Virus record (IMG/VR): IMGVR_UViG_3300041809_000290 | Location: 1-56,028 of that record | Strand: one strand, 5' to 3' | Source of the DNA: a virus | Taxonomy: Duplodnaviria; Caudoviricetes | Length of the DNA stretch: 56,028 bases | Shown here: in pieces, positions 3,488-55,581 of the stretch | How the letters are laid out: the number at the start of each line of letters is the position of its first letter | Position numbering within the stretch: the first letter of the stretch is position 1 | Position numbers and translations under genes: made by a program | Notes under the pieces: model-generated | What the model was told of the DNA's origin: nothing | The model's database searches: none | What the model saw: the letters and a program-made list of their open reading frames with translations, nothing else

Positions 3488-3706
3488 TCATTCTGCTTCG
3501 TCTACAACTTCATATTTTATGTCTTCACTTATGACCAGTACTTTGTTATCTGGAAATAGCGCAGAAAATACGCCATCTATTTTGGCTTGTATTTCATCTG
3601 GAACACCAAACGGCACTGTTACGATAATTTTTGCTGATTTAGGAACCTTAACTACTTGAACTGATTTGAGTTCAAGCTCTTGCCCTTCATTGTTGATAAG
3701 TTTCAT
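3488..3706 (-). CDS. Hypothetical protein
   Basis: ORF with GGGAGG RBS. Confidence 0.7.
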   Translation of the reverse strand: MKLINNEGQELELKSVQVVKVPKSAKIIVTVPFGVPDEIQAKIDGVFSALFPDNKVLVISEDIKYEVVDEAE

Positions 3707-3876
3707 TTCTTATGCCTCCCTCGATTAGACTTTAGTTTAAACGGCTTTTTTGTTGAAGCATAACATAACGGCTTAGCTTCAGAGTTGGTGTTAGGAGTTA
3801 CGCAAACATCGCCGTGACGACAGTGAGCTTTCCATCGGCACTTGCATATCCGCTCACTTCCGTCAGGATTTTGCAT
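3703..3876 (-). CDS. Cys-rich 57-aa microprotein, paralogue of 3986-4159
   Basis: MQNPDGSERICKCRWKAHCRHGDVC...PLCY; AAAGGAGG RBS; ATGA overlap with next gene. Confidence 0.7.
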   Translation of the reverse strand: MQNPDGSERICKCRWKAHCRHGDVCVTPNTNSEAKPLCYASTKKPFKLKSNRGRHKK

Positions 3877-3900
3877 ACATCTATGCCTCCTTTAAACACC

Positions 3901-3965
3901 ATATTATCCATATAATTGTATTCCTTCAATCTTAATTTGAATTAAATCTCAAAATTTGATAATAT
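3901..3965. promoter_or_regulatory. Back-to-back sigma70-type promoters
   Basis: Minus: TTGAAG(3929-3924)-17-TAATAT. Plus: TTGAAT(3937)-17-TAATAT(3960). Located at the strand switch. Confidence 0.7.
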
Positions 3966-3985
3966 TAAAGGCCATTGGAGGCTTT

Positions 3986-4159
3986 ATGAATGGGAAAGAG
4001 CGTACAGGTGAACCTTTGTGTAGTTGTCAGTGGGCCTTAGACTGTCATAAAGGGCTAAAATGCCCTTCTCGGCAGCATCATGCATCTGAACTTCCTCCTG
4101 ATTGCTATCAAAATCGAAATCCTATTATACATGAGGAATTAAATTTACACAATAGTTAA
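3986..4159 (+). CDS. Cys-rich 57-aa microprotein
   Basis: GGAGG RBS, ATG 3986; LCSCQWALDCHKGLKC...PDCY. Confidence 0.7.
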   Translation: MNGKERTGEPLCSCQWALDCHKGLKCPSRQHHASELPPDCYQNRNPIIHEELNLHNS

Positions 4160-4168
4160 ATTTAATGA

Positions 4169-4197
4169 TTGACACTATTAAATAATAGGTTTAGTAT
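4169..4197 (+). promoter_or_regulatory. sigma70-type promoter
   Basis: TTGACA-17-TAGTAT. Confidence 0.7.
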
Positions 4198-4259
4198 CGG
4201 TGAATGGCATGATCCAACGGTGTTCGTATGAACACCTATTAAGAAGCATGGAGGCCAAA

Positions 4260-4664
4260 ATGGCAGTAGTCAAGACAAGAGAGCCACGACAGACTTTTCG
4301 AGGGCTTTCGATCAGCGCGGCAAATCCGATGGGGCGAAGGAGCGGTCATCGGGCTCCTCGATCTCTTCGGCGGCGCGGATTCAATCGAATCGAAGAATGC
4401 AAAGATGAGGATATCGCCAAGTACGTCTTCGGCCTCGATCTTCAAGGAGAGCGAAACGCTATCGATAAGAAAAGGATGGCCACTCTTAGGGGTCAAATCA
4501 CAAAGTTGGAGAAACAGGTAGTCAAAGATCCGAAGGATGATCAGCTTGAAAAGAATCGGGAAATTCAGATTCGTATCAACGCACTACAACACGATATAGA
4601 TTCCATGGAAGTTCCGGTTAAGAAGATAGAGGCCCTTGTTAAGGATTTTCGGAGCGCCGTATGA
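4260..4664 (+). CDS. Hypothetical protein with Arg-rich N-terminus and coiled coil
   Basis: GGAGG RBS before ATG 4260. Confidence 0.75.
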   Translation: MAVVKTREPRQTFRGLSISAANPMGRRSGHRAPRSLRRRGFNRIEECKDEDIAKYVFGLDLQGERNAIDKKRMATLRGQITKLEKQVVKDPKDDQLEKNREIQIRINALQHDIDSMEVPVKKIEALVKDFRSAV

Positions 4665-4918
4665 AGTTGCGCGATATCCGAAATGGAGCTATCTATCCCA
4701 TCGACTCTTTAGTTCCCATGGATGGGCCTAATTCCGGCCCATATGTCATGACGGGTATCATCTCACGATCTTCGACTCCTATTCAGATTCCTTCAGAGTT
4801 TTGTGAGATCATTCTTGGTTCTAGGGACAGGCAAAGTGCTGAGATCCAAGCTCGCTATTTAGAAAATGCTCCTACCTTTTCAAACTTCACTCCTTCTCCA
4901 GAGGAGGATGACGACTAG
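4661..4918 (+). CDS. Hypothetical protein
   Basis: ATGA-coupled ORF. Confidence 0.7.
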   Translation: MKLRDIRNGAIYPIDSLVPMDGPNSGPYVMTGIISRSSTPIQIPSEFCEIILGSRDRQSAEIQARYLENAPTFSNFTPSPEEDDD

Positions 4919-4920
4919 AC

Positions 4921-5028
4921 TGCGAAACTGTCTGAGTAATCCAAGGGAAGAAAGCGGGTCATTGGGGATGATCAACATGTAGATGACGAGCGAGTCTTGT
5001 GTTCAAAGAAAACCAGAACCATTGAGCG
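4921..5028 (+). ncRNA. TIGR-like guide RNA array 1 (3 x 36-nt units)
   Basis: Units start at 4921, 4957, 4993: 5-nt edge, N9, loop (AGTAATCCA / degenerate / AGAAAACCA), N9, AGCG. Confidence 0.7.
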
Positions 5029-5029
5029 C

Positions 5030-5053
5030 GCCCACCTTAATTGGTGGGCTTTT
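5030..5053 (+). terminator. Intrinsic terminator
   Basis: GCCCACC-ttaatt-GGTGGGC-TTTT. Confidence 0.85.
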
Positions 5054-5056
5054 ATA

Positions 5057-5085
5057 TTGAAATAAACTCAATTTATTCATAATAT
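5057..5085 (+). promoter_or_regulatory. sigma70-type promoter
   Basis: TTGAAA-17-TAATAT. Confidence 0.65.
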
Positions 5086-5104
5086 ACCAAAGGAAGGTGG
5101 TTTT

Positions 5105-5371
5105 ATGCAAAGCATTGAAGATATGTTAGGTCCTCCAATTTTTATAAACGATGTCAATACAAAGTGGTGGCATGATCATCGTGTAAATGAATTATTAATG
5201 CTTAACAGTTTGACTCAACAATTCTCTGCTTGGATAGTAAGATTCGGGGATGGTCAGATTGAACGCGTTTTAGTTACTGAGCCAGACCATGAAGTCATGC
5301 ATTCAACTAAAAACTACAATGAAATGGAAATTGCTATTCTTGAATTAAAACACCAAAAGGAGGGAATATGA
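5105..5371 (+). CDS. Hypothetical protein
   Basis: ORF with RBS. Confidence 0.7.
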   Translation: MQSIEDMLGPPIFINDVNTKWWHDHRVNELLMLNSLTQQFSAWIVRFGDGQIERVLVTEPDHEVMHSTKNYNEMEIAILELKHQKEGI

Positions 5372-5556
5372 ACTTATTCCAATATCTTATTATGGTAGGC
5401 TTAATCACATCTATTCTCGGATTTGTTCTTATGTTTGTTCATAAATATTTTATTTCCAACAGCATCATCTATAAATTGACAAAGTATCGTTATATAGTAC
5501 TTATCATTGGTTGCACGTTGTGCATGATCTACAATTTACGTTGTCTGATAGTTTAG
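5368..5556 (+). CDS. Small membrane protein (2 TM)
   Basis: Two hydrophobic stretches; AGGAGG RBS. Confidence 0.65.
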   Translation: MNLFQYLIMVGLITSILGFVLMFVHKYFISNSIIYKLTKYRYIVLIIGCTLCMIYNLRCLIV

Positions 5557-5566
5557 GAGGTATAAT

Positions 5567-5821
5567 TTGGTGTTTAAGGTAGGCGAAATAGTAAAATGCA
5601 TTGACAGTTCGTTTCTTAAAGATGAGGACAAGTCTCACTTCGATCAATGGCTTGTTGAAGGCAACATTTATACGGTTCGAAATCTATGTTTGATGCCAAA
5701 TCATGATCCTGGAATTTATTTAAATGAAATCAGGGGCCACGTTGCACATTGTCTGGAAACAGATTGTGAAATGGAATATTGCTTTAATCCAAACAGGTTT
5801 CAAAGAATAGGAGGGGAATGA
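5567..5821 (+). CDS. Hypothetical protein, paralogue of 43562-43906
   Basis: FKVGEIVKCID...GNIYTVR...NRF motif; AGGAGG RBS. Confidence 0.7.
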   Translation: MVFKVGEIVKCIDSSFLKDEDKSHFDQWLVEGNIYTVRNLCLMPNHDPGIYLNEIRGHVAHCLETDCEMEYCFNPNRFQRIGGE

Positions 5822-6048
5822 TGAATTCAGATGATGAACTAATTGAGGAGGAAGATTCTCTCGCTAATGCTGCTGGAATTACACCTCCGGACATTCTTTT
5901 AAAGGGAGACAATATTGCGCCGAAAGTCACACATCCTTGGGACTATATTCATTTATCCAAAGTAGAACGCAAGGGAAAGACCTATGAGGAATTGCAAGAA
6001 ATTCGCAAAGAAAAATGGTATGAATTGAATAACAAATCCGTTATATGA
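5818..6048 (+). CDS. Hypothetical protein
   Basis: Coupled ORF; ends in a 20-bp tandem duplication. Confidence 0.6.
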   Translation: MMNSDDELIEEEDSLANAAGITPPDILLKGDNIAPKVTHPWDYIHLSKVERKGKTYEELQEIRKEKWYELNNKSVI

Positions 6049-6125
6049 ATAACAAATCCGTTACTCCTGGCTATCTCAAGTATAGATCCATCTTCTGAAA
6101 TTGAAATCACGAAGGAGGAACCAAA

Positions 6126-7031
6126 ATGAAGCATGTATTTTATCATGGAGCAGACTTAGATGGATGGTGTGCTGGATTTATTTGTTCTCTAGGGTTGCGT
6201 GCAGAGGGTGTAGAGTATGAACTACATTCTTATGATTATGGAAATTCGTTTCCTCACAACGAAGTGGACCTCAAGAAGGATTCGTTGATATTTACGGATG
6301 TAGTTCCTAGTCCTTATGACAATCTTTTGCGTATATGCCAAGAAGGATATGATATTACAATTATCGATCATCACAAATCTTTAATAGAGTTCGTGCAATC
6401 ACAATTGACTTCATTTGATATCAAAGGACTTTTAAGTGATCAAGTTTCAGCTTGCATGCTTGCGTGGAAATACTATTTCCCTTCTTTAACTGTTCCTGAG
6501 TATATTAAACTACTTAGTTTATATGATACTTGGAACAATAAAGACAAAGAACTTTGGGACAACCGTATCATGCCATTTCAATTGGGTTCTCGGGTACATG
6601 CTAAAAATCCCTCAATTGATAACAATTTTTGGAATGATCTTCAGGACCATCGTTATGATTCTGAACGCATAAACAAAATTATTAATGACGGTATAGTATG
6701 CATGGATTACAAAAAACAAGATGATGAGAAGAACTGCCATCTGTCATTCAATGGAACGATGGTTGATTTTCCTAGTTATCGTTGTATTTGTTTAAACACT
6801 GGTTTTTGTGGTTCACAAACTTTTGAAAGCAAATGGAATGAAAATGATTATGACATTATGCTCGCGTATAATTACAACGGCCATGGATTTTCGGTTAGTC
6901 TTTATACTACCAAAGATATTGATGTATCAAAAATAGCGGTATCATATGGAGGAGGAGGCCACAAACAAGCAGCAGGATTTAGAGTTAAATCTGTTGAGAT
7001 AAAGGATGGTATTATAATATTTACTAAGTAA
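6126..7031 (+). CDS. DHH/DHHA1-family phosphoesterase
   Basis: HGADLDG, FTD, IIDHH and C-terminal GGGGHKQAAGF motifs. Confidence 0.92.
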   Translation: MKHVFYHGADLDGWCAGFICSLGLRAEGVEYELHSYDYGNSFPHNEVDLKKDSLIFTDVVPSPYDNLLRICQEGYDITIIDHHKSLIEFVQSQLTSFDIKGLLSDQVSACMLAWKYYFPSLTVPEYIKLLSLYDTWNNKDKELWDNRIMPFQLGSRVHAKNPSIDNNFWNDLQDHRYDSERINKIINDGIVCMDYKKQDDEKNCHLSFNGTMVDFPSYRCICLNTGFCGSQTFESKWNENDYDIMLAYNYNGHGFSVSLYTTKDIDVSKIAVSYGGGGHKQAAGFRVKSVEIKDGIIIFTK

Positions 7032-7285
7032 TGTCTATGATAGTAAGAATTCCAATCAAAGAGAGCGCGCCAGTTGCTTTGAGTAATCCAACGTCTATGA
7101 GCGGACCAAATAGTGTGAGTAAACCAATAGTGGTGAGTGTGTCAGGCAGTTTAGAGTAAACCAGAAGTAGTGAGCGGGTCAAAAGTGGTGAGACATCCAA
7201 AAAGGAAGAACGAACCAAGAATGAAAAGACGACCAATTAGCTAAAGTGAGCCTAACATCGATGAGAAATCCAGCGAGAGAAAGCG
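7032..7285 (+). ncRNA. TIGR-like guide RNA array 2 (7 units of 36-37 nt)
   Basis: Units start at 7032, 7068, 7104, 7140, 7177, 7213, 7249; edge AGYG|nnYCA alternates with loop AGWnnWCCA around 9-10-nt variable segments. Confidence 0.8.
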
Positions 7286-7295
7286 TATTTTGATT

Positions 7296-7323
7296 AAAGC
7301 CCGATTAGTTATCGGGCTTTTTT
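7296..7323 (+). terminator. Intrinsic terminator (possibly bidirectional)
   Basis: AAAGCCCGAT-tagtt-ATCGGGCTTTTTT. Confidence 0.85.
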
Positions 7324-7348
7324 AATTCCGTGTCATCATCACGGAATT
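7324..7348. repeat. Dispersed 25-bp palindrome, copy 1
   Basis: AATTCCGTG-TCATCAT-CACGGAATT. Confidence 0.9.
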
Positions 7349-7415
7349 GATTCTATTATAGAAGGTTGCTAATCGGACAATCCATGTGGTATCATTATTC
7401 GAATAGGAGAAGCGC

Positions 7416-8153
7416 GTGATGCTCAGATTAGTGGTTCCCGTTGAATCTCGTTTAATGAAATCCCGACAACAAAATTCAACTCAAGGAGTTCGACTTGTCG
7501 TCAACGAGGATTCATGCAAGATTGAGAGCAAGCAAAGCACGACCCGTTGGAAGAATATTGAAAAAAGCCATCAATCAACAATTGTATTACAACGGGGATC
7601 AAGACCATCCCAAAAACAAGTTGCGTTATTGTCGAAGAATAATAGTCGATTACAGAGTAAATGCGAGAATGCGATCATTGAAAAACTCGCAGAGATCGAA
7701 CACGATAGATGGAGTGGGCAAGCTAGAACTGCTTTAGATAAAATGGATAATGAACGAAGAACGAGATGGGATAAATTGTCCAAGACTCCATATGATAAAT
7801 TAACAGAGGAAATGAAACAAAAATATAGGGATCAAGTTTATGAATATTGGCCTATAATTAAATCATTTATTTTATCGATGATGGGCAGGAAATTTAAGAA
7901 AAGTTTAACTGATTTGTGGGTTGTTCCTCGAAGTCCTGGTATGTCTGTTGAAAATCATTCCAAGAAAACATTTAGAGTAATTGATGACAAACAATCGCTG
8001 TTTGACACTGACGAAGAACAACAGAAGAAGCAAGAGAAGAACAATACTGAATTGAAGATAATAAACAAGCATCGTAAGAAGGCCGTGAACCACCAAATTC
8101 AACAATCAAGAACTTCTATTGATCCCGTATATGCGCCAGAGCAAATGTATTAG
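7416..8153 (+). CDS. Protein with RyR-like domain
   Basis: EKLAEIEHDRW...TPYDKLTEEMKQKYR resembles the RyR repeat motif; several xxKS motifs. Confidence 0.6.
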   Translation: MMLRLVVPVESRLMKSRQQNSTQGVRLVVNEDSCKIESKQSTTRWKNIEKSHQSTIVLQRGSRPSQKQVALLSKNNSRLQSKCENAIIEKLAEIEHDRWSGQARTALDKMDNERRTRWDKLSKTPYDKLTEEMKQKYRDQVYEYWPIIKSFILSMMGRKFKKSLTDLWVVPRSPGMSVENHSKKTFRVIDDKQSLFDTDEEQQKKQEKNNTELKIINKHRKKAVNHQIQQSRTSIDPVYAPEQMY

Positions 8154-9852: not shown

Positions 9853-10437
9853 ATGAACTTTCTAAGTCTATTCGGACGATACTTAGTAGCTAGAAGCGGC
9901 GGAATGGTTGAATCTCCCTGGATGATGGCTGCTGTTGACATGGGAGACTGTTTCTTAGGTACTGTTAATCCAACTACGTTAGCTGCATCAGGAACGATGC
10001 AGATACTATTGTCGATCCCCGTTGGTGTAGCTGCACACGTAAAAGATATGATGTGCAATTTAAACCAAGCATATTCTGTAGCGATAAGCTATTTAAGCGG
10101 AGCATGGGCTAAAACAGGACAACAACCTGTACTGAATTTAAATCTTGCAAACTATGGAGCATTGAAATCTCCCAAATGTTCGCTATGGTCTGGTTACACA
10201 GGTTCTCCTACATTAAATCCAATATTCACGGCAAATCTTCCTGCTACTGTAGGACATGAGAACTTGCTGTCGGGCGAGAATGAGAAGATAATCAAGGGCG
10301 GTGGTGCTGGAGCCCCTGGAACTTTTATGGATTACTTAATAGTTATAACCAATACTTCTGCTAGTTCCATGACTAACCCGTTCTTTAAATTGAGATGGGT
10401 TGAGGACGTGGATACTACTAATACTGCTGGACCGTAA
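9853..10437 (+). CDS. Putative virion structural protein
   Basis: ORF with RBS, located in head module. Confidence 0.6.
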   Translation: MNFLSLFGRYLVARSGGMVESPWMMAAVDMGDCFLGTVNPTTLAASGTMQILLSIPVGVAAHVKDMMCNLNQAYSVAISYLSGAWAKTGQQPVLNLNLANYGALKSPKCSLWSGYTGSPTLNPIFTANLPATVGHENLLSGENEKIIKGGGAGAPGTFMDYLIVITNTSASSMTNPFFKLRWVEDVDTTNTAGP

Positions 10438-17956: not shown

Positions 17957-17981
17957 AATTCCGTGTCATCGTCACGGAATT
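17957..17981. repeat. Dispersed 25-bp palindrome, copy 2
   Basis: AATTCCGTG-TCATCGT-CACGGAATT. Confidence 0.9.
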
Positions 17982-32603: not shown

Positions 32604-34712
32604 ATGGTCCTTAACGCAAGTAGAGCTATAAAAGCTGCACAGTTTTACTCTGGAGAACAAGCTACCAGCGCTGATTTTAATTTTATGGCACAAGAGACCT
32701 ATCAAAATGAAGTTGAACTTTTGGCGATGCTCGCTAATAACGAAGATGTGGATGATGTCTCCACTTCGGATACTGTTATAGCCGGTTTAATTGCTACAAC
32801 AATATCAAATTTAAACGTTACACTAACTGCCGGATGCGCGGTATCTTTCTCGGGATCTTATTGGTCCAATAATACCTGGGGATGGGTTTCCGGCGCTGGA
32901 AACATATTTGGGGTTATTAATCCATCGGATCAGGTTCTTGCATTTGGATCTAATTCTGGAACTTACACCAGATATGATATCGTCGAGATTCAACCAGTAT
33001 TAAATAGTTATAATTCTTCATCTCGACAGTTTATAGACCCTGTTACGCAGCAAGTATCGACAAATAATGTTAATACAAGATATGAATTTGGAATTAATAT
33101 AGTAATTAAACCAGGAAATGCTTCGGTTCAAAATACCTATCCGACTACTGATCCTGGATACATTAAAGTTATGGAAGTGGCTATACCTGTGGGGGCTACA
33201 ACTCCAAGTTATGTATATGACTCTCGAAACACTGGATTATGGAATGGCAATAATGGCGGTACAAGGTGCAGTAAAGATTTGTTTTATTATATTGCACAAA
33301 ATGCTGCAAGTTCTCCTTTTACCACTTCGTTGCCATTGGCATCGGCAAATAGAGGAAGAATGTATATTTTTCAAAAAACCGATAGTAGTGCAAATACCGT
33401 TACTGTAACTGTTACTGGAGCCGATACTATCAATGGATCGGTCACTTCAATTGTTCTGTCTTCACAATGGGATTACGTTGTTCTTCGTGCTATTAATTCA
33501 GGAAATTATATTGTCATCGCTAATGGAATTGGGCAATGGAAATCTGCATTAACAAAGCCGTTGGGTGCAGGTTGGCCGATAGCACTAAATGCTTCTGCCG
33601 TGTTGGGGTCGGCAAACGGAATTGATGCGGCATCGGTTATTCAGTATGGAATAGGGACACTAAGCCCTCCGAGCATAACAAATCTTAACCAATATTTGCC
33701 TGGGGGATTTTATTTAACTACTAATGCTTGTACGGGTGCACCAGGAGGGCTGGCTCACTACTTTGAAGTAATAATTGTTACTGTAAGTACTACACAATCT
33801 GTACAATACGCATTTGATACTTCCACATTAATATTATATAAAAGATACTATTCGGGTGGGGCAGGCACTTGGGGCACGATTTATGATTCAGTATCTCTGC
33901 CTCTCGGGACCAACTGGCCCGCAGTCCTTGCAGGCGCTCTCGGGACCAACTGGCCCGCAGTCCTTGCAGGCGCTCTCGGGACCAACTGGCCCGCAGTCCT
34001 TGCAGGCGGGACGATGGGCTCCGGGTCCGGAGCAGGAGGCACGATCCCCAACGGCCCGTGGACCAGCTATACGTTCTGGTCGAGCGGAGTCGGCCCGAAT
34101 ACCGTCATCCTGCCGCCTATCTCCAGCATGCAAGTAGGCAATAGGGTCACGGTGTACACTGGGGCCGCGGTTACGACTATAAACGCGGCCGGATCGGACC
34201 ATCTTGGATATTATGGCGGATCGTATGGGACTTCTTTTGTTCTCCAGGCGTGCGGCGACTATGTTACTCTCGAATACAACCCGGCGGGCCTATGGGCCGT
34301 CGTCGCGACGAACGGACCGGAACTTGAAGCATCTTATAGCGGTTCAATAACAACCGGAACTCCTGGTTCAGGTGTACCTTATAATATAGGAAATATTGTT
34401 TTAGTTCCTGGAGTTTACGATTTATTAATGACGGGGGACGTAGACGCTGAAACAGGTTACGCTACAACTATGTCCCTGTTAGCCGCTTTGTCTACATCTT
34501 CTTCTAGTATATCTGACAATGATCTGGCCGGGGAGGCACTAGTTGGAATGCAAAGTGCGAATGTAGGCGAAGTTCGAGGGTCAATAACTAAATTAAAAAG
34601 AGTTATTATCACTACATCAACAACTTATTATTTAATATTTTTATTATATGGTAACAGTCCTCCACTTGCTTATTATAGAAACTTTAGAATAAGTGCAAGA
34701 AGATTGGCATAA
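32604..34712 (+). CDS. Tail fibre / receptor-binding protein
   Basis: RYDIV N-terminal anchor motif, modular Gly/Ser/Thr-rich body, last tail gene. Confidence 0.85.
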   Translation: MVLNASRAIKAAQFYSGEQATSADFNFMAQETYQNEVELLAMLANNEDVDDVSTSDTVIAGLIATTISNLNVTLTAGCAVSFSGSYWSNNTWGWVSGAGNIFGVINPSDQVLAFGSNSGTYTRYDIVEIQPVLNSYNSSSRQFIDPVTQQVSTNNVNTRYEFGINIVIKPGNASVQNTYPTTDPGYIKVMEVAIPVGATTPSYVYDSRNTGLWNGNNGGTRCSKDLFYYIAQNAASSPFTTSLPLASANRGRMYIFQKTDSSANTVTVTVTGADTINGSVTSIVLSSQWDYVVLRAINSGNYIVIANGIGQWKSALTKPLGAGWPIALNASAVLGSANGIDAASVIQYGIGTLSPPSITNLNQYLPGGFYLTTNACTGAPGGLAHYFEVIIVTVSTTQSVQYAFDTSTLILYKRYYSGGAGTWGTIYDSVSLPLGTNWPAVLAGALGTNWPAVLAGALGTNWPAVLAGGTMGSGSGAGGTIPNGPWTSYTFWSSGVGPNTVILPPISSMQVGNRVTVYTGAAVTTINAAGSDHLGYYGGSYGTSFVLQACGDYVTLEYNPAGLWAVVATNGPELEASYSGSITTGTPGSGVPYNIGNIVLVPGVYDLLMTGDVDAETGYATTMSLLAALSTSSSSISDNDLAGEALVGMQSANVGEVRGSITKLKRVIITTSTTYYLIFLLYGNSPPLAYYRNFRISARRLA
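33901..34008 (+). repeat. Three perfect 36-bp coding repeats (LGTNWPAVLAGA)
   Basis: CTCTCGGGACCAACTGGCCCGCAGTCCTTGCAGGCG x3. Confidence 0.95.
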
Positions 34713-37499: not shown

Positions 37500-37524
37500 A
37501 ATTTCGTGTCATCATCACGGAATC
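37500..37524. repeat. Dispersed 25-bp palindrome, copy 3
   Basis: AATTTCGTG-TCATCAT-CACGGAATC (2 mismatches to copy 1). Confidence 0.85.
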
Positions 37525-55237: not shown

Positions 55238-55558
55238 ATGGCAGATAAAAGCTGGAAAGCCTTTGAACGAGTTGTGGCTAGATTCTTTGGGACAGAGCGC
55301 AATCCGTTGTCTGGAGAGAACAGCCGGCATCATACTAATTCCGATTCATTGCATCCTACTTTATATATCGAATGCAAGCGCGACCTAAGTATATTTCCTA
55401 AAAAGCTCATTGATTTAATTATGGATACGGAGGAGAAGGCTTCACAGGAAGGCAAGATTCCTATTATTGCATTAAAACAACACAGGCGTAAGGGTTTTTA
55501 TATGCTCATTCATAGTGCTGATGTTTTGGACGTGGCTTCAGAAGTAGTAGAAGAATAA
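55238..55558 (+). CDS. PD-(D/E)xK Holliday junction resolvase-like protein
   Basis: WKAFERVVA...SD...YIECK. Confidence 0.7.
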   Translation: MADKSWKAFERVVARFFGTERNPLSGENSRHHTNSDSLHPTLYIECKRDLSIFPKKLIDLIMDTEEKASQEGKIPIIALKQHRRKGFYMLIHSADVLDVASEVVEE

Positions 55559-55581
55559 TTCCGTGACGACGACACGGAATT
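55557..55581. repeat. Dispersed 25-bp palindrome, copy 4 (inverted orientation)
   Basis: AATTCCGTG-ACGACGA-CACGGAATT; reverse-complement spacer is TCGTCGT. Confidence 0.9.

Follow-up and report, generated by a model that had tools for sequence, protein, structure and literature searches.

The stretch of DNA analysed here (the window) covers positions 1–56,028, in nucleotides (nt), of the IMG/VR record IMGVR_UViG_3300041809_000290, a virus of the Caudoviricetes, and corresponds to approximately 58% of the genome as estimated by CheckV. At positions 4921–5028 it carries a short repeat array, hereafter array A, which very probably is a TIGR-type array by descent; a better kept array of the same repeat family (array B; 7032–7285) lies 2.0 kb away. 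TIGR-Tas systems were described in 2025, and array A represents a small, clear, transcribed TIGR-type array with no tas gene recognizable in 56 kb. The kind of element is known; what is new is an array detached from tas. We read it as the orphaned, drifting remnant of a former array–tas–array locus, an interpretation in which we place about as much belief as doubt.

Layout and family identity of array A

Dual-repeat TIGR arrays were defined by Faure et al. (Science 2025; PMC12045711). In their description each repeat runs from box D (UG) to box C (CCA), both boxes being base-specific contacts with Tas, and the array opens with a truncated edge repeat and closes with a truncated edge and a rho-independent terminator. 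Array A is composed of three 36-nt units in exact register, which start at 4921, 4957 and 4993 and end at 5028, and along which loop-type repeats (GAGTAATCCA) and edge-type repeats (GAGCGGGTCA) take turns. The unit plan is half an edge, an 8-nt spacer A, a 10-nt loop, an 8-nt spacer B and half an edge, with seven variable letters following each of the half-unit repeats, which are spaced at 18 nt. The array opens with a truncated edge at a stop codon and closes with a truncated edge, after which comes the terminator. Its parts are as follows.

4921–4956, plus strand: unit 1; truncated edge TGCGA, spacer A AACTGTCT, intact loop GAGTAATCCA, spacer B AGGGAAGA, edge half AAGCG
4957–4992, plus strand: unit 2; edge half GGTCA, spacer A TTGGGGAT, loop GATCAACATG, spacer B TAGATGAC, edge half GAGCG
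4993–5028, plus strand: unit 3; edge half AGTCT, spacer A TGTGTTCA, loop AAGAAAACCA, spacer B GAACCATT, terminal truncated edge GAGCG
4933, plus strand: half-unit TGAGTAATCCA
4951, plus strand: half-unit AAAGCGGGTCA
4969, plus strand: half-unit TGATCAACATG
4987, plus strand: half-unit CGAGCGAGTCT
5005, plus strand: half-unit AAAGAAAACCA
5023, plus strand: half-unit TGAGCGCGCC

A preliminary description, made from the sequence alone, had reported the letters, the coordinates and the exact 36-nt register of this array, its start 3 nt after a stop codon and its run into a terminator. All of these stand: array A begins on the third base past a stop codon that ends at 4918, the terminator hairpin occupies 5030–5049, and the register lies well beyond chance by two profiles. 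The first of these was a position matrix built from the half-units of array B alone and applied as a chain of six half-units; its score at 4933 was 40.9, compared with 8.9 for the highest unrelated site on the two strands. The second, independent set was derived from 342 edge and 404 loop repeats of Tas-linked arrays from other phages and gave 54.9 at 7044 (array B) and 42.8 at 4933, followed by 10.5 in the tail of array B and then by 2.2. With these Tas-linked profiles, 100 first-order Markov random windows yielded a maximum of 9.3 (mean −3.6, standard deviation 2.5). The order of loops and edges in array A matches the phase that the Tas-linked profiles predict; the loop profile gives −16.1 for the half-unit at 4969. 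Since independent profiles score 42.8 against a random maximum of 9.3, common descent of array A with the TIGR-type dual-repeat arrays beside tasA in many phages and in Dehalococcoidia MAG (metagenome-assembled genome) contigs is strongly suggested, as is the membership of both arrays in one family that the preliminary description had proposed. The scan for further arrays that it had also proposed returned two places in the window, arrays A and B. The repeat vocabulary that it saw in both arrays was likewise recovered: AGTAATCCA is found at 4935, at 7082 and, unrelated to the arrays, on the minus strand at 10328, and AGCGGGTCA occurs in the window at 4953 and 7173 only.

Relatives of the repeats were sought in IMG/VR with a pattern of three half-units TGAG....CCA at 18-nt spacing. 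Of the 57 loci recovered, approximately 29 proved on reading to be alternating arrays (edge nGAGCGAGCCA, loop nGAGARNACCA), the others being simple tandem repeats. An open reading frame (ORF) of approximately 260–300 amino acid residues, belonging to one protein family, adjoins the array in 22 of the 57. The member of this family from locus L013 matches the solved structure of TasH (21kl_A, E 3.9e-9), which indicates that these are genuine TIGR-Tas loci; it also matches 9mty_A, deposited as an IS110-type C-terminal-domain protein. The first letter of the clade 11-mer is free (A 0.23–0.25, C 0.22–0.23, G 0.20–0.22, T 0.32–0.33), and the repeats are therefore 10 nt long (GAG....CCA) and the spacers 8 nt, which replaces the earlier parse into repeats and spacers of 9 nt each. 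The loops (GAGTAATCCA/GAGTAAACCA) and edges (GAGCGGGTCA/GAGCGGACCA) of the window differ from the clade consensus by one or two letters. Identical GAGTAAACCA loops are present in the Tas-linked arrays of two contigs of Dehalococcoidia MAGs, L155 and L157. Loops of the GAGTAA type were found in 16 prokaryote-genome loci (L146–L161), nine of them in Dehalococcoidia or Dehalococcoidales MAGs, which provides a possible clue to the host; a homologue (P0108) of the DHH protein encoded upstream of array B is also named from a Dehalococcoidales MAG.

In comparison with the phage TIGR-TasA arrays (PMC12045711; Xu et al., bioRxiv 2026, 10.64898/2026.09.09.750476), array A shares the 36-nt unit, the two alternating short repeats (whose family form runs from box D, here GAG, to box C, CCA) and the two short spacers per unit; its repeat words fit the consensus seen beside Tas genes. 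Unlike them it has no recognizable tas in 56 kb, has three units only and shows eroded boxes in every unit. The SpTIGR-TasH system of Salicola phage CGphi29 likewise involves a phage-borne dual-repeat array, and the 16 nt of spacer (8 + 8) per tigRNA given for it (PMC12045711; PMC13421893) fits array A, the likeness being one of unit layout alone. In SpTIGR the adjacent effector is an HNH-Nop protein, whereas Pfam scans of approximately 60 ORFs of the window revealed no HNH, RuvC or Nop protein.

Erosion of the repeats and the search for tas

The notation of the preliminary description implied conserved repeats, whereas those of array A are much more degenerate. Each half-unit was scored for the letters of GAG and CCA (maximum 6), with 728 half-units from the arrays of 19 Tas-linked loci as reference. 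Both boxes are intact in 535 of the reference half-units, 130 score 5/6 and 63 (9%) score 4/6 or less. The corresponding figures are one, two and four among the seven half-units of array A, and seven, six and none among the 13 of array B. The half-unit at 4969 retains 2/6, its box C being wholly lost. Unit 1 is the best kept of the three, with CGA as edge box C and AAG as edge box D. Unit 2 has lost its loop box C (ATG), has GAT as loop box D and is probably dead, and unit 3 shows TCT as edge box C and AAG as loop box D. At least one box is thus defective in each unit, and because these are contacts that Tas needs, at most unit 1 should still be loadable by a compatible Tas.

Mean pairwise identities tell a similar story. 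Repeats of the same class are 0.47–0.52 and 0.47–0.70 identical in array A and 0.71/0.71 in array B. The reference values, from 36 Tas-linked arrays, are 0.87 and 0.82 as medians and 0.58 and 0.50 as minima. Spacer identity is 0.21 in array A, 0.31 in array B and 0.27 (median) in Tas-linked arrays. By these sequence measures array A lies at or beyond the degenerate end of the arrays seen beside Tas genes.

No Tas protein was recognized in the window by any of the profile searches employed. A hidden Markov model (HMM) of 19 Tas proteins gave, against window ORFs of at least 40 residues, a best E value of 0.13, to a coiled-coil stretch of the ORF at 950–1720. The highest Tas probability returned by hhalign for the 116 window ORFs of at least 90 residues was 2.2%, and a six-frame search of the window with a 21-member Tas alignment (A2) produced no match at E values up to 10. 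The Pfam model Nop (PF01798) also had no match in six frames of the window; the same model misses five of five phage records with long TIGR arrays (G001–G005; loci L011, L013, L041, L050 and L055), and its negative result is therefore no evidence of Tas absence. Four of these five (L011, L013, L041 and L050) have a Tas homologue by the Tas HMM, and four of the five array-bearing records are at least 90% complete. Judged by the Tas profiles, a tas gene appears to be absent from the 4.9 kb upstream and 49 kb downstream of array A, so the gene for any effector would have to lie 4.9 kb or more from the array, or on a different element.

The usual layout is different. Among 80 TasA loci surveyed with flanks of up to 8 kb, arrays are present in 79; the 217 array segments without exception share the strand of tas and lie at a median distance of 91 nt from it (90th percentile 979 nt, maximum 2787 nt). 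When ten IMG/VR records that bear Tas were searched whole with a strict edge and loop pattern, the matches listed fell at one site per record. A site may hold several arrays (three in G001, two each in G004 and G005) with gaps of 0.75–1.8 kb, which from their spacing alone may be read as array–tas–array. In three loci (L028, L051 and L005) the Tas-linked array starts 1–6 nt past the end of an upstream tas reading frame. Array A has the same placement after a stop codon; the upstream gene there is tas and here an ORFan of 85 residues.

A relative of the phage that retains tas was also sought, and no related phage of the window was found. Positions 4100–7400 had no blastn match among GenBank phages, and the DHH protein as a single query returned no relative from IMG/VR. 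The window-specific repeat pair matched three IMG/VR loci, which were one and the same non-array sequence lacking array structure and were rejected; the window-type repeat pattern had no match in genome_contigs. As candidate sister phages the 80 TasA loci were compared with window ORFs of at least 80 residues and rejected as well: DnaB alone matched, in two loci, and hence there is no synteny with TasA loci.

Spacer targets were sought within the window for both arrays in four orientations and with gaps of 0–6 nt. No target of a spacer pair with one mismatch or fewer was present; hits with two mismatches occurred at about chance level by our own estimate.

Interpretation of array A

The interpretation of array A as a remnant, which could with equal probability prove right or wrong, draws on its erosion, its short length, the missing tas where the clade has one and the array–gap–array geometry (2.0 kb). 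Arrays A and B would most likely be the two flanking arrays of a former array–tas–array locus. The tas gene once present between them would have been lost or replaced by five unrelated genes (5105–7031, including a DHH phosphoesterase), and array A, orphaned by this loss, would now be drifting and lack function.

Several points weigh against this view. A tas gene may sit in the portion of the genome outside the window, which represents only the fraction given above; and as a six-frame profile search detected no tas remnant between the arrays, the loss event is purely one that we infer. Array A has kept an exact 36-nt register free of insertions and deletions, its repeats (0.47–0.70) are far more alike than its spacers (0.21), and array B falls within the range of Tas-linked arrays for boxes and identity, all of which could reflect continuing selection. 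The most degenerate Tas-linked arrays (L008 and L012) approach array A, and remote degenerate arrays may have been missed, since Tas loci were found via tas or via well-kept arrays. Moreover, a Dehalococcoidia MAG contig (L153:1098–5208; G011:C148) carries three TIGR-type arrays which follow the stop codons of non-tas genes at distances of up to approximately 45 nt. These genes encode proteins of 113, 608 (membrane-anchored, β-helix-like) and 210 residues, apparently secreted or membrane proteins, and neither the 8-kb locus nor the rest of the MAG gave a Tas match. A Tas match was found in only one of five such MAGs, which may be incomplete. Tas-less placement after unrelated genes thus recurs, which keeps alive the two readings, considered below, in which Tas is supplied from elsewhere; such recurring layouts may be functional.

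One of these readings takes array A as a working satellite cassette: early promoters would drive both arrays, their transcripts would be cut into 36-nt tigRNAs, and these would be loaded on a Tas supplied in trans from the missing 40% or so of the genome. The preliminary description had likewise envisaged guides serving an effector in trans. We consider this doubtful, though not far-fetched. Much of the genome is indeed missing, as indicated by the terminase, portal and DNA polymerase not being found in Pfam scans of approximately 60 ORFs. The exact register, the clear contrast between repeats and spacers, the possession of its own terminator, the cover of array A by RNA contigs from two studies and the condition of array B, as well kept as some Tas-linked arrays, all fit a functioning cassette. 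Other points speak against it. No Tas was detected in the window, and the layout is without parallel in the surveyed material, where the arrays found adjoin tas throughout (80 of 80 TasA loci, 10 of 10 records taken whole). Every unit is damaged in box C or D, for which the published account of Tas binding gives base-specific contacts (PMC12045711), and this agrees with decay at least as well as with function. The lack in the window of a spacer-pair target with one mismatch or fewer also counts against it, natural targets not necessarily being located in the phage.

The other reading has array A act on a foreign Tas, of a host-resident element or a competing phage, by supplying hijacking guides or, given its partly defective boxes, an abundant early RNA decoy that ties Tas up, analogous to phage mini-CRISPR arrays and RNA anti-CRISPRs. 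The array is indeed carried on an early, promoter-proximal transcript seen in two metatranscriptomes, no tas was found in the window, and its loops (GAGTAAACCA/GAGTAATCCA) are identical or nearly so to the Tas-linked loops of L155 and L157; by virtue of these shared loops, compatible Tas proteins exist in plausible hosts. The Tas-less arrays A and B, expressed early, would then be kept on purpose, the better units redirecting a foreign Tas and the box-defective units of array A soaking it up as decoys, although we think this improbable. The Tas concerned would come from another element in the cell, such as a prophage or mobile genetic element of a Dehalococcoidia-like host, or from a co-infecting phage. 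Erosion is more simply explained by neutral decay and no such mechanism for TIGR was found in the literature searched; action on a foreign Tas as a whole is judged improbable. Still less credence, indeed very little, is due to a chance or unrelated 18/36-nt periodicity in a 3′ untranslated region, such as a degenerate tandem repeat or a set of protein-binding sites. Such a periodicity would agree with the silence of Tandem Repeats Finder on both arrays at scores of at least 30, the lack of Rfam matches within the window at gathering thresholds, the ordinary RNA fold of 4915–5060 (z = −1.65) and the one unrecognizable half-unit. It is opposed by the score of 42.8 with independent Tas-linked profiles against a random maximum of 9.3, by the correct loop and edge phase and by the fact that the sole other scoring place is array B, which has the same stop codon–array–terminator layout.

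Orphan CRISPR arrays and phage mini-CRISPR arrays are guide arrays without adjacent effector genes, either relics or served in trans. They belong to a different RNA-guided system and have no repeat or effector homology to array A. No paper on orphan TIGR arrays was found in the literature searched. The published TIGRFinder catalogue, by the description of its method (10.64898/2026.09.09.750476), searches for arrays only around tas genes, and arrays standing away from tas therefore fall outside it. If arrays such as A are relics, as we favour, they testify to TIGR-Tas having been gained and lost by phages. Should a Tas in trans serve them instead, searches for TIGR loci must change, and guide sharing or decoys between mobile elements come into question; action on a foreign Tas, if real, would be a strategy (anti-Tas or guide hijack) of which no earlier case has been described for TIGR systems. 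Alone, a three-unit eroded array is a modest finding.

The transcription unit, array B and other features of the window

Array A is co-transcribed as the 3′ tail of an operon of two ORFans. The elements of this unit, all on the plus strand, are listed here.

4169–4197, plus strand: sigma-70-like promoter (TTGACA, 17 nt, TAGTAT), matching the consensus at 10 of 12 positions
4251–4664, plus strand: ORF1, ORFan of 137 residues with an Arg-rich N-terminus and a predicted coiled-coil C-terminus
4661–4918, plus strand: ORF2, ORFan of 85 residues, overlapping ORF1 by ATGA; its stop codon abuts array A
5030–5056, plus strand: rho-independent terminator; hairpin 5030–5049 with a 7-bp stem (six G-C pairs) and the loop TTAATT, then the T-tract TTTTAT

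The phage is present in wetland metagenomes (runs X1–X4) at 99% identity or more. Among RNA data, a contig of run X5 covers 4193–5022 (830 nt) and one of run X6, from a separate metatranscriptome study, covers 4561–5026, both with no differing letter; they uphold the earlier placement of array A in a separate early operon, at its 3′ end. The X5 contig opens at 4193, approximately 10 nt ahead of the start that this promoter would give, and the true transcription start may therefore lie elsewhere. Both RNA contigs end at the last edge repeat, short of the terminator stem, where DNA contigs continue across. This hints weakly at an RNA 3′ end before the terminator; the ordinary drop in cover towards a terminated 3′ end would explain it equally well. 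Being assembled contigs, they show the unprocessed transcript and are unable to reveal a 36-nt species. Array B and the regions 3700–4192 and 5059–7776 are not covered by RNA contigs of X5 or X6, which is not evidence of silence. The DNA runs are all at least 99% alike, with no variant rows and a single differing letter in one contig. DNA contigs break within array A in run X1 (4912/4927) and run X2 (4973/4985), at a depth of 3–5, from which nothing is drawn.

Neither gene of the operon has credible homologues besides itself. ORF1 has no Pfam family above cut-off and no PHROG, found only its self-match among 5.8 billion proteins (Atlas top score 0.75) and is without likeness to Tas by the Tas HMM and hhalign. 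ORF2 lacks a Pfam or PHROG family and had no Atlas match of 0.8 or more; beyond ORF2 itself, a full HMMER search of 1.84 billion representatives returned two weak matches, each confined to a short stretch of a long protein. The G+C content at 4200–4500 is 0.53, compared with 0.35–0.40 on either side, which may point to acquisition of the whole operon (ORF1, ORF2 and array A) from a donor richer in GC.

Array B and its surroundings comprise the following.

5105–7031: interval between the arrays; four small ORFs and a DHH/DHHA1 phosphoesterase gene (6126–7031), five genes unrelated to tas
7032–7285, plus strand: array B, approximately seven units (three of 36 nt, three of approximately 37 nt and one of approximately 35 nt)
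7296–7320, plus strand: terminator of array B, from a terminator scan

Array B begins with the base immediately following the stop codon of the DHH/DHHA1 gene. Of 250 relatives of the DHH protein, 80 IMG/VR loci were examined and none carries an array beside it, which shows that the adjacency is not a conserved association. In those phages the gene usually lies among replication genes (ThyX, RecA, DnaB, primase), and the small ORFs at 5105–6048 are not conserved beside DHH in other phage loci. The position of DHH beside array B looks like mosaic placement and not like a functional pair. Several array B spacers (7098–7195) are purine-rich and mutually alike (AATAGTG, ATAGTGG, GAAGTAG, AAAGTGG), which suggests unit duplication followed by drift instead of independent acquisition. 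The ORF that follows array B (7416–8153) has only a sub-threshold match to the RyR domain and no relevant PDB match.

The window has no tRNA genes. A 25-bp palindrome (AATTCCGTG, 7 nt, CACGGAATT) recurs at 7324–7348, 17957–17981, 37500–37524 and 55557–55581. It has no match in IMG/VR and is present in five metagenome loci, L141–L145 (for example L143:3487–3520), none of which has a match to Tas. L145 overlaps the end of the window and adds 250 nt; beyond the palindrome, L141–L144 have no blastn match to the window. Lastly, positions 33901–34008 hold a perfect tandem repeat of three 36-nt copies (100% identity) within an ORF of 702 residues in the tail region (32604–34712); it is apparently a coding repeat and has no relation to the TIGR arrays.

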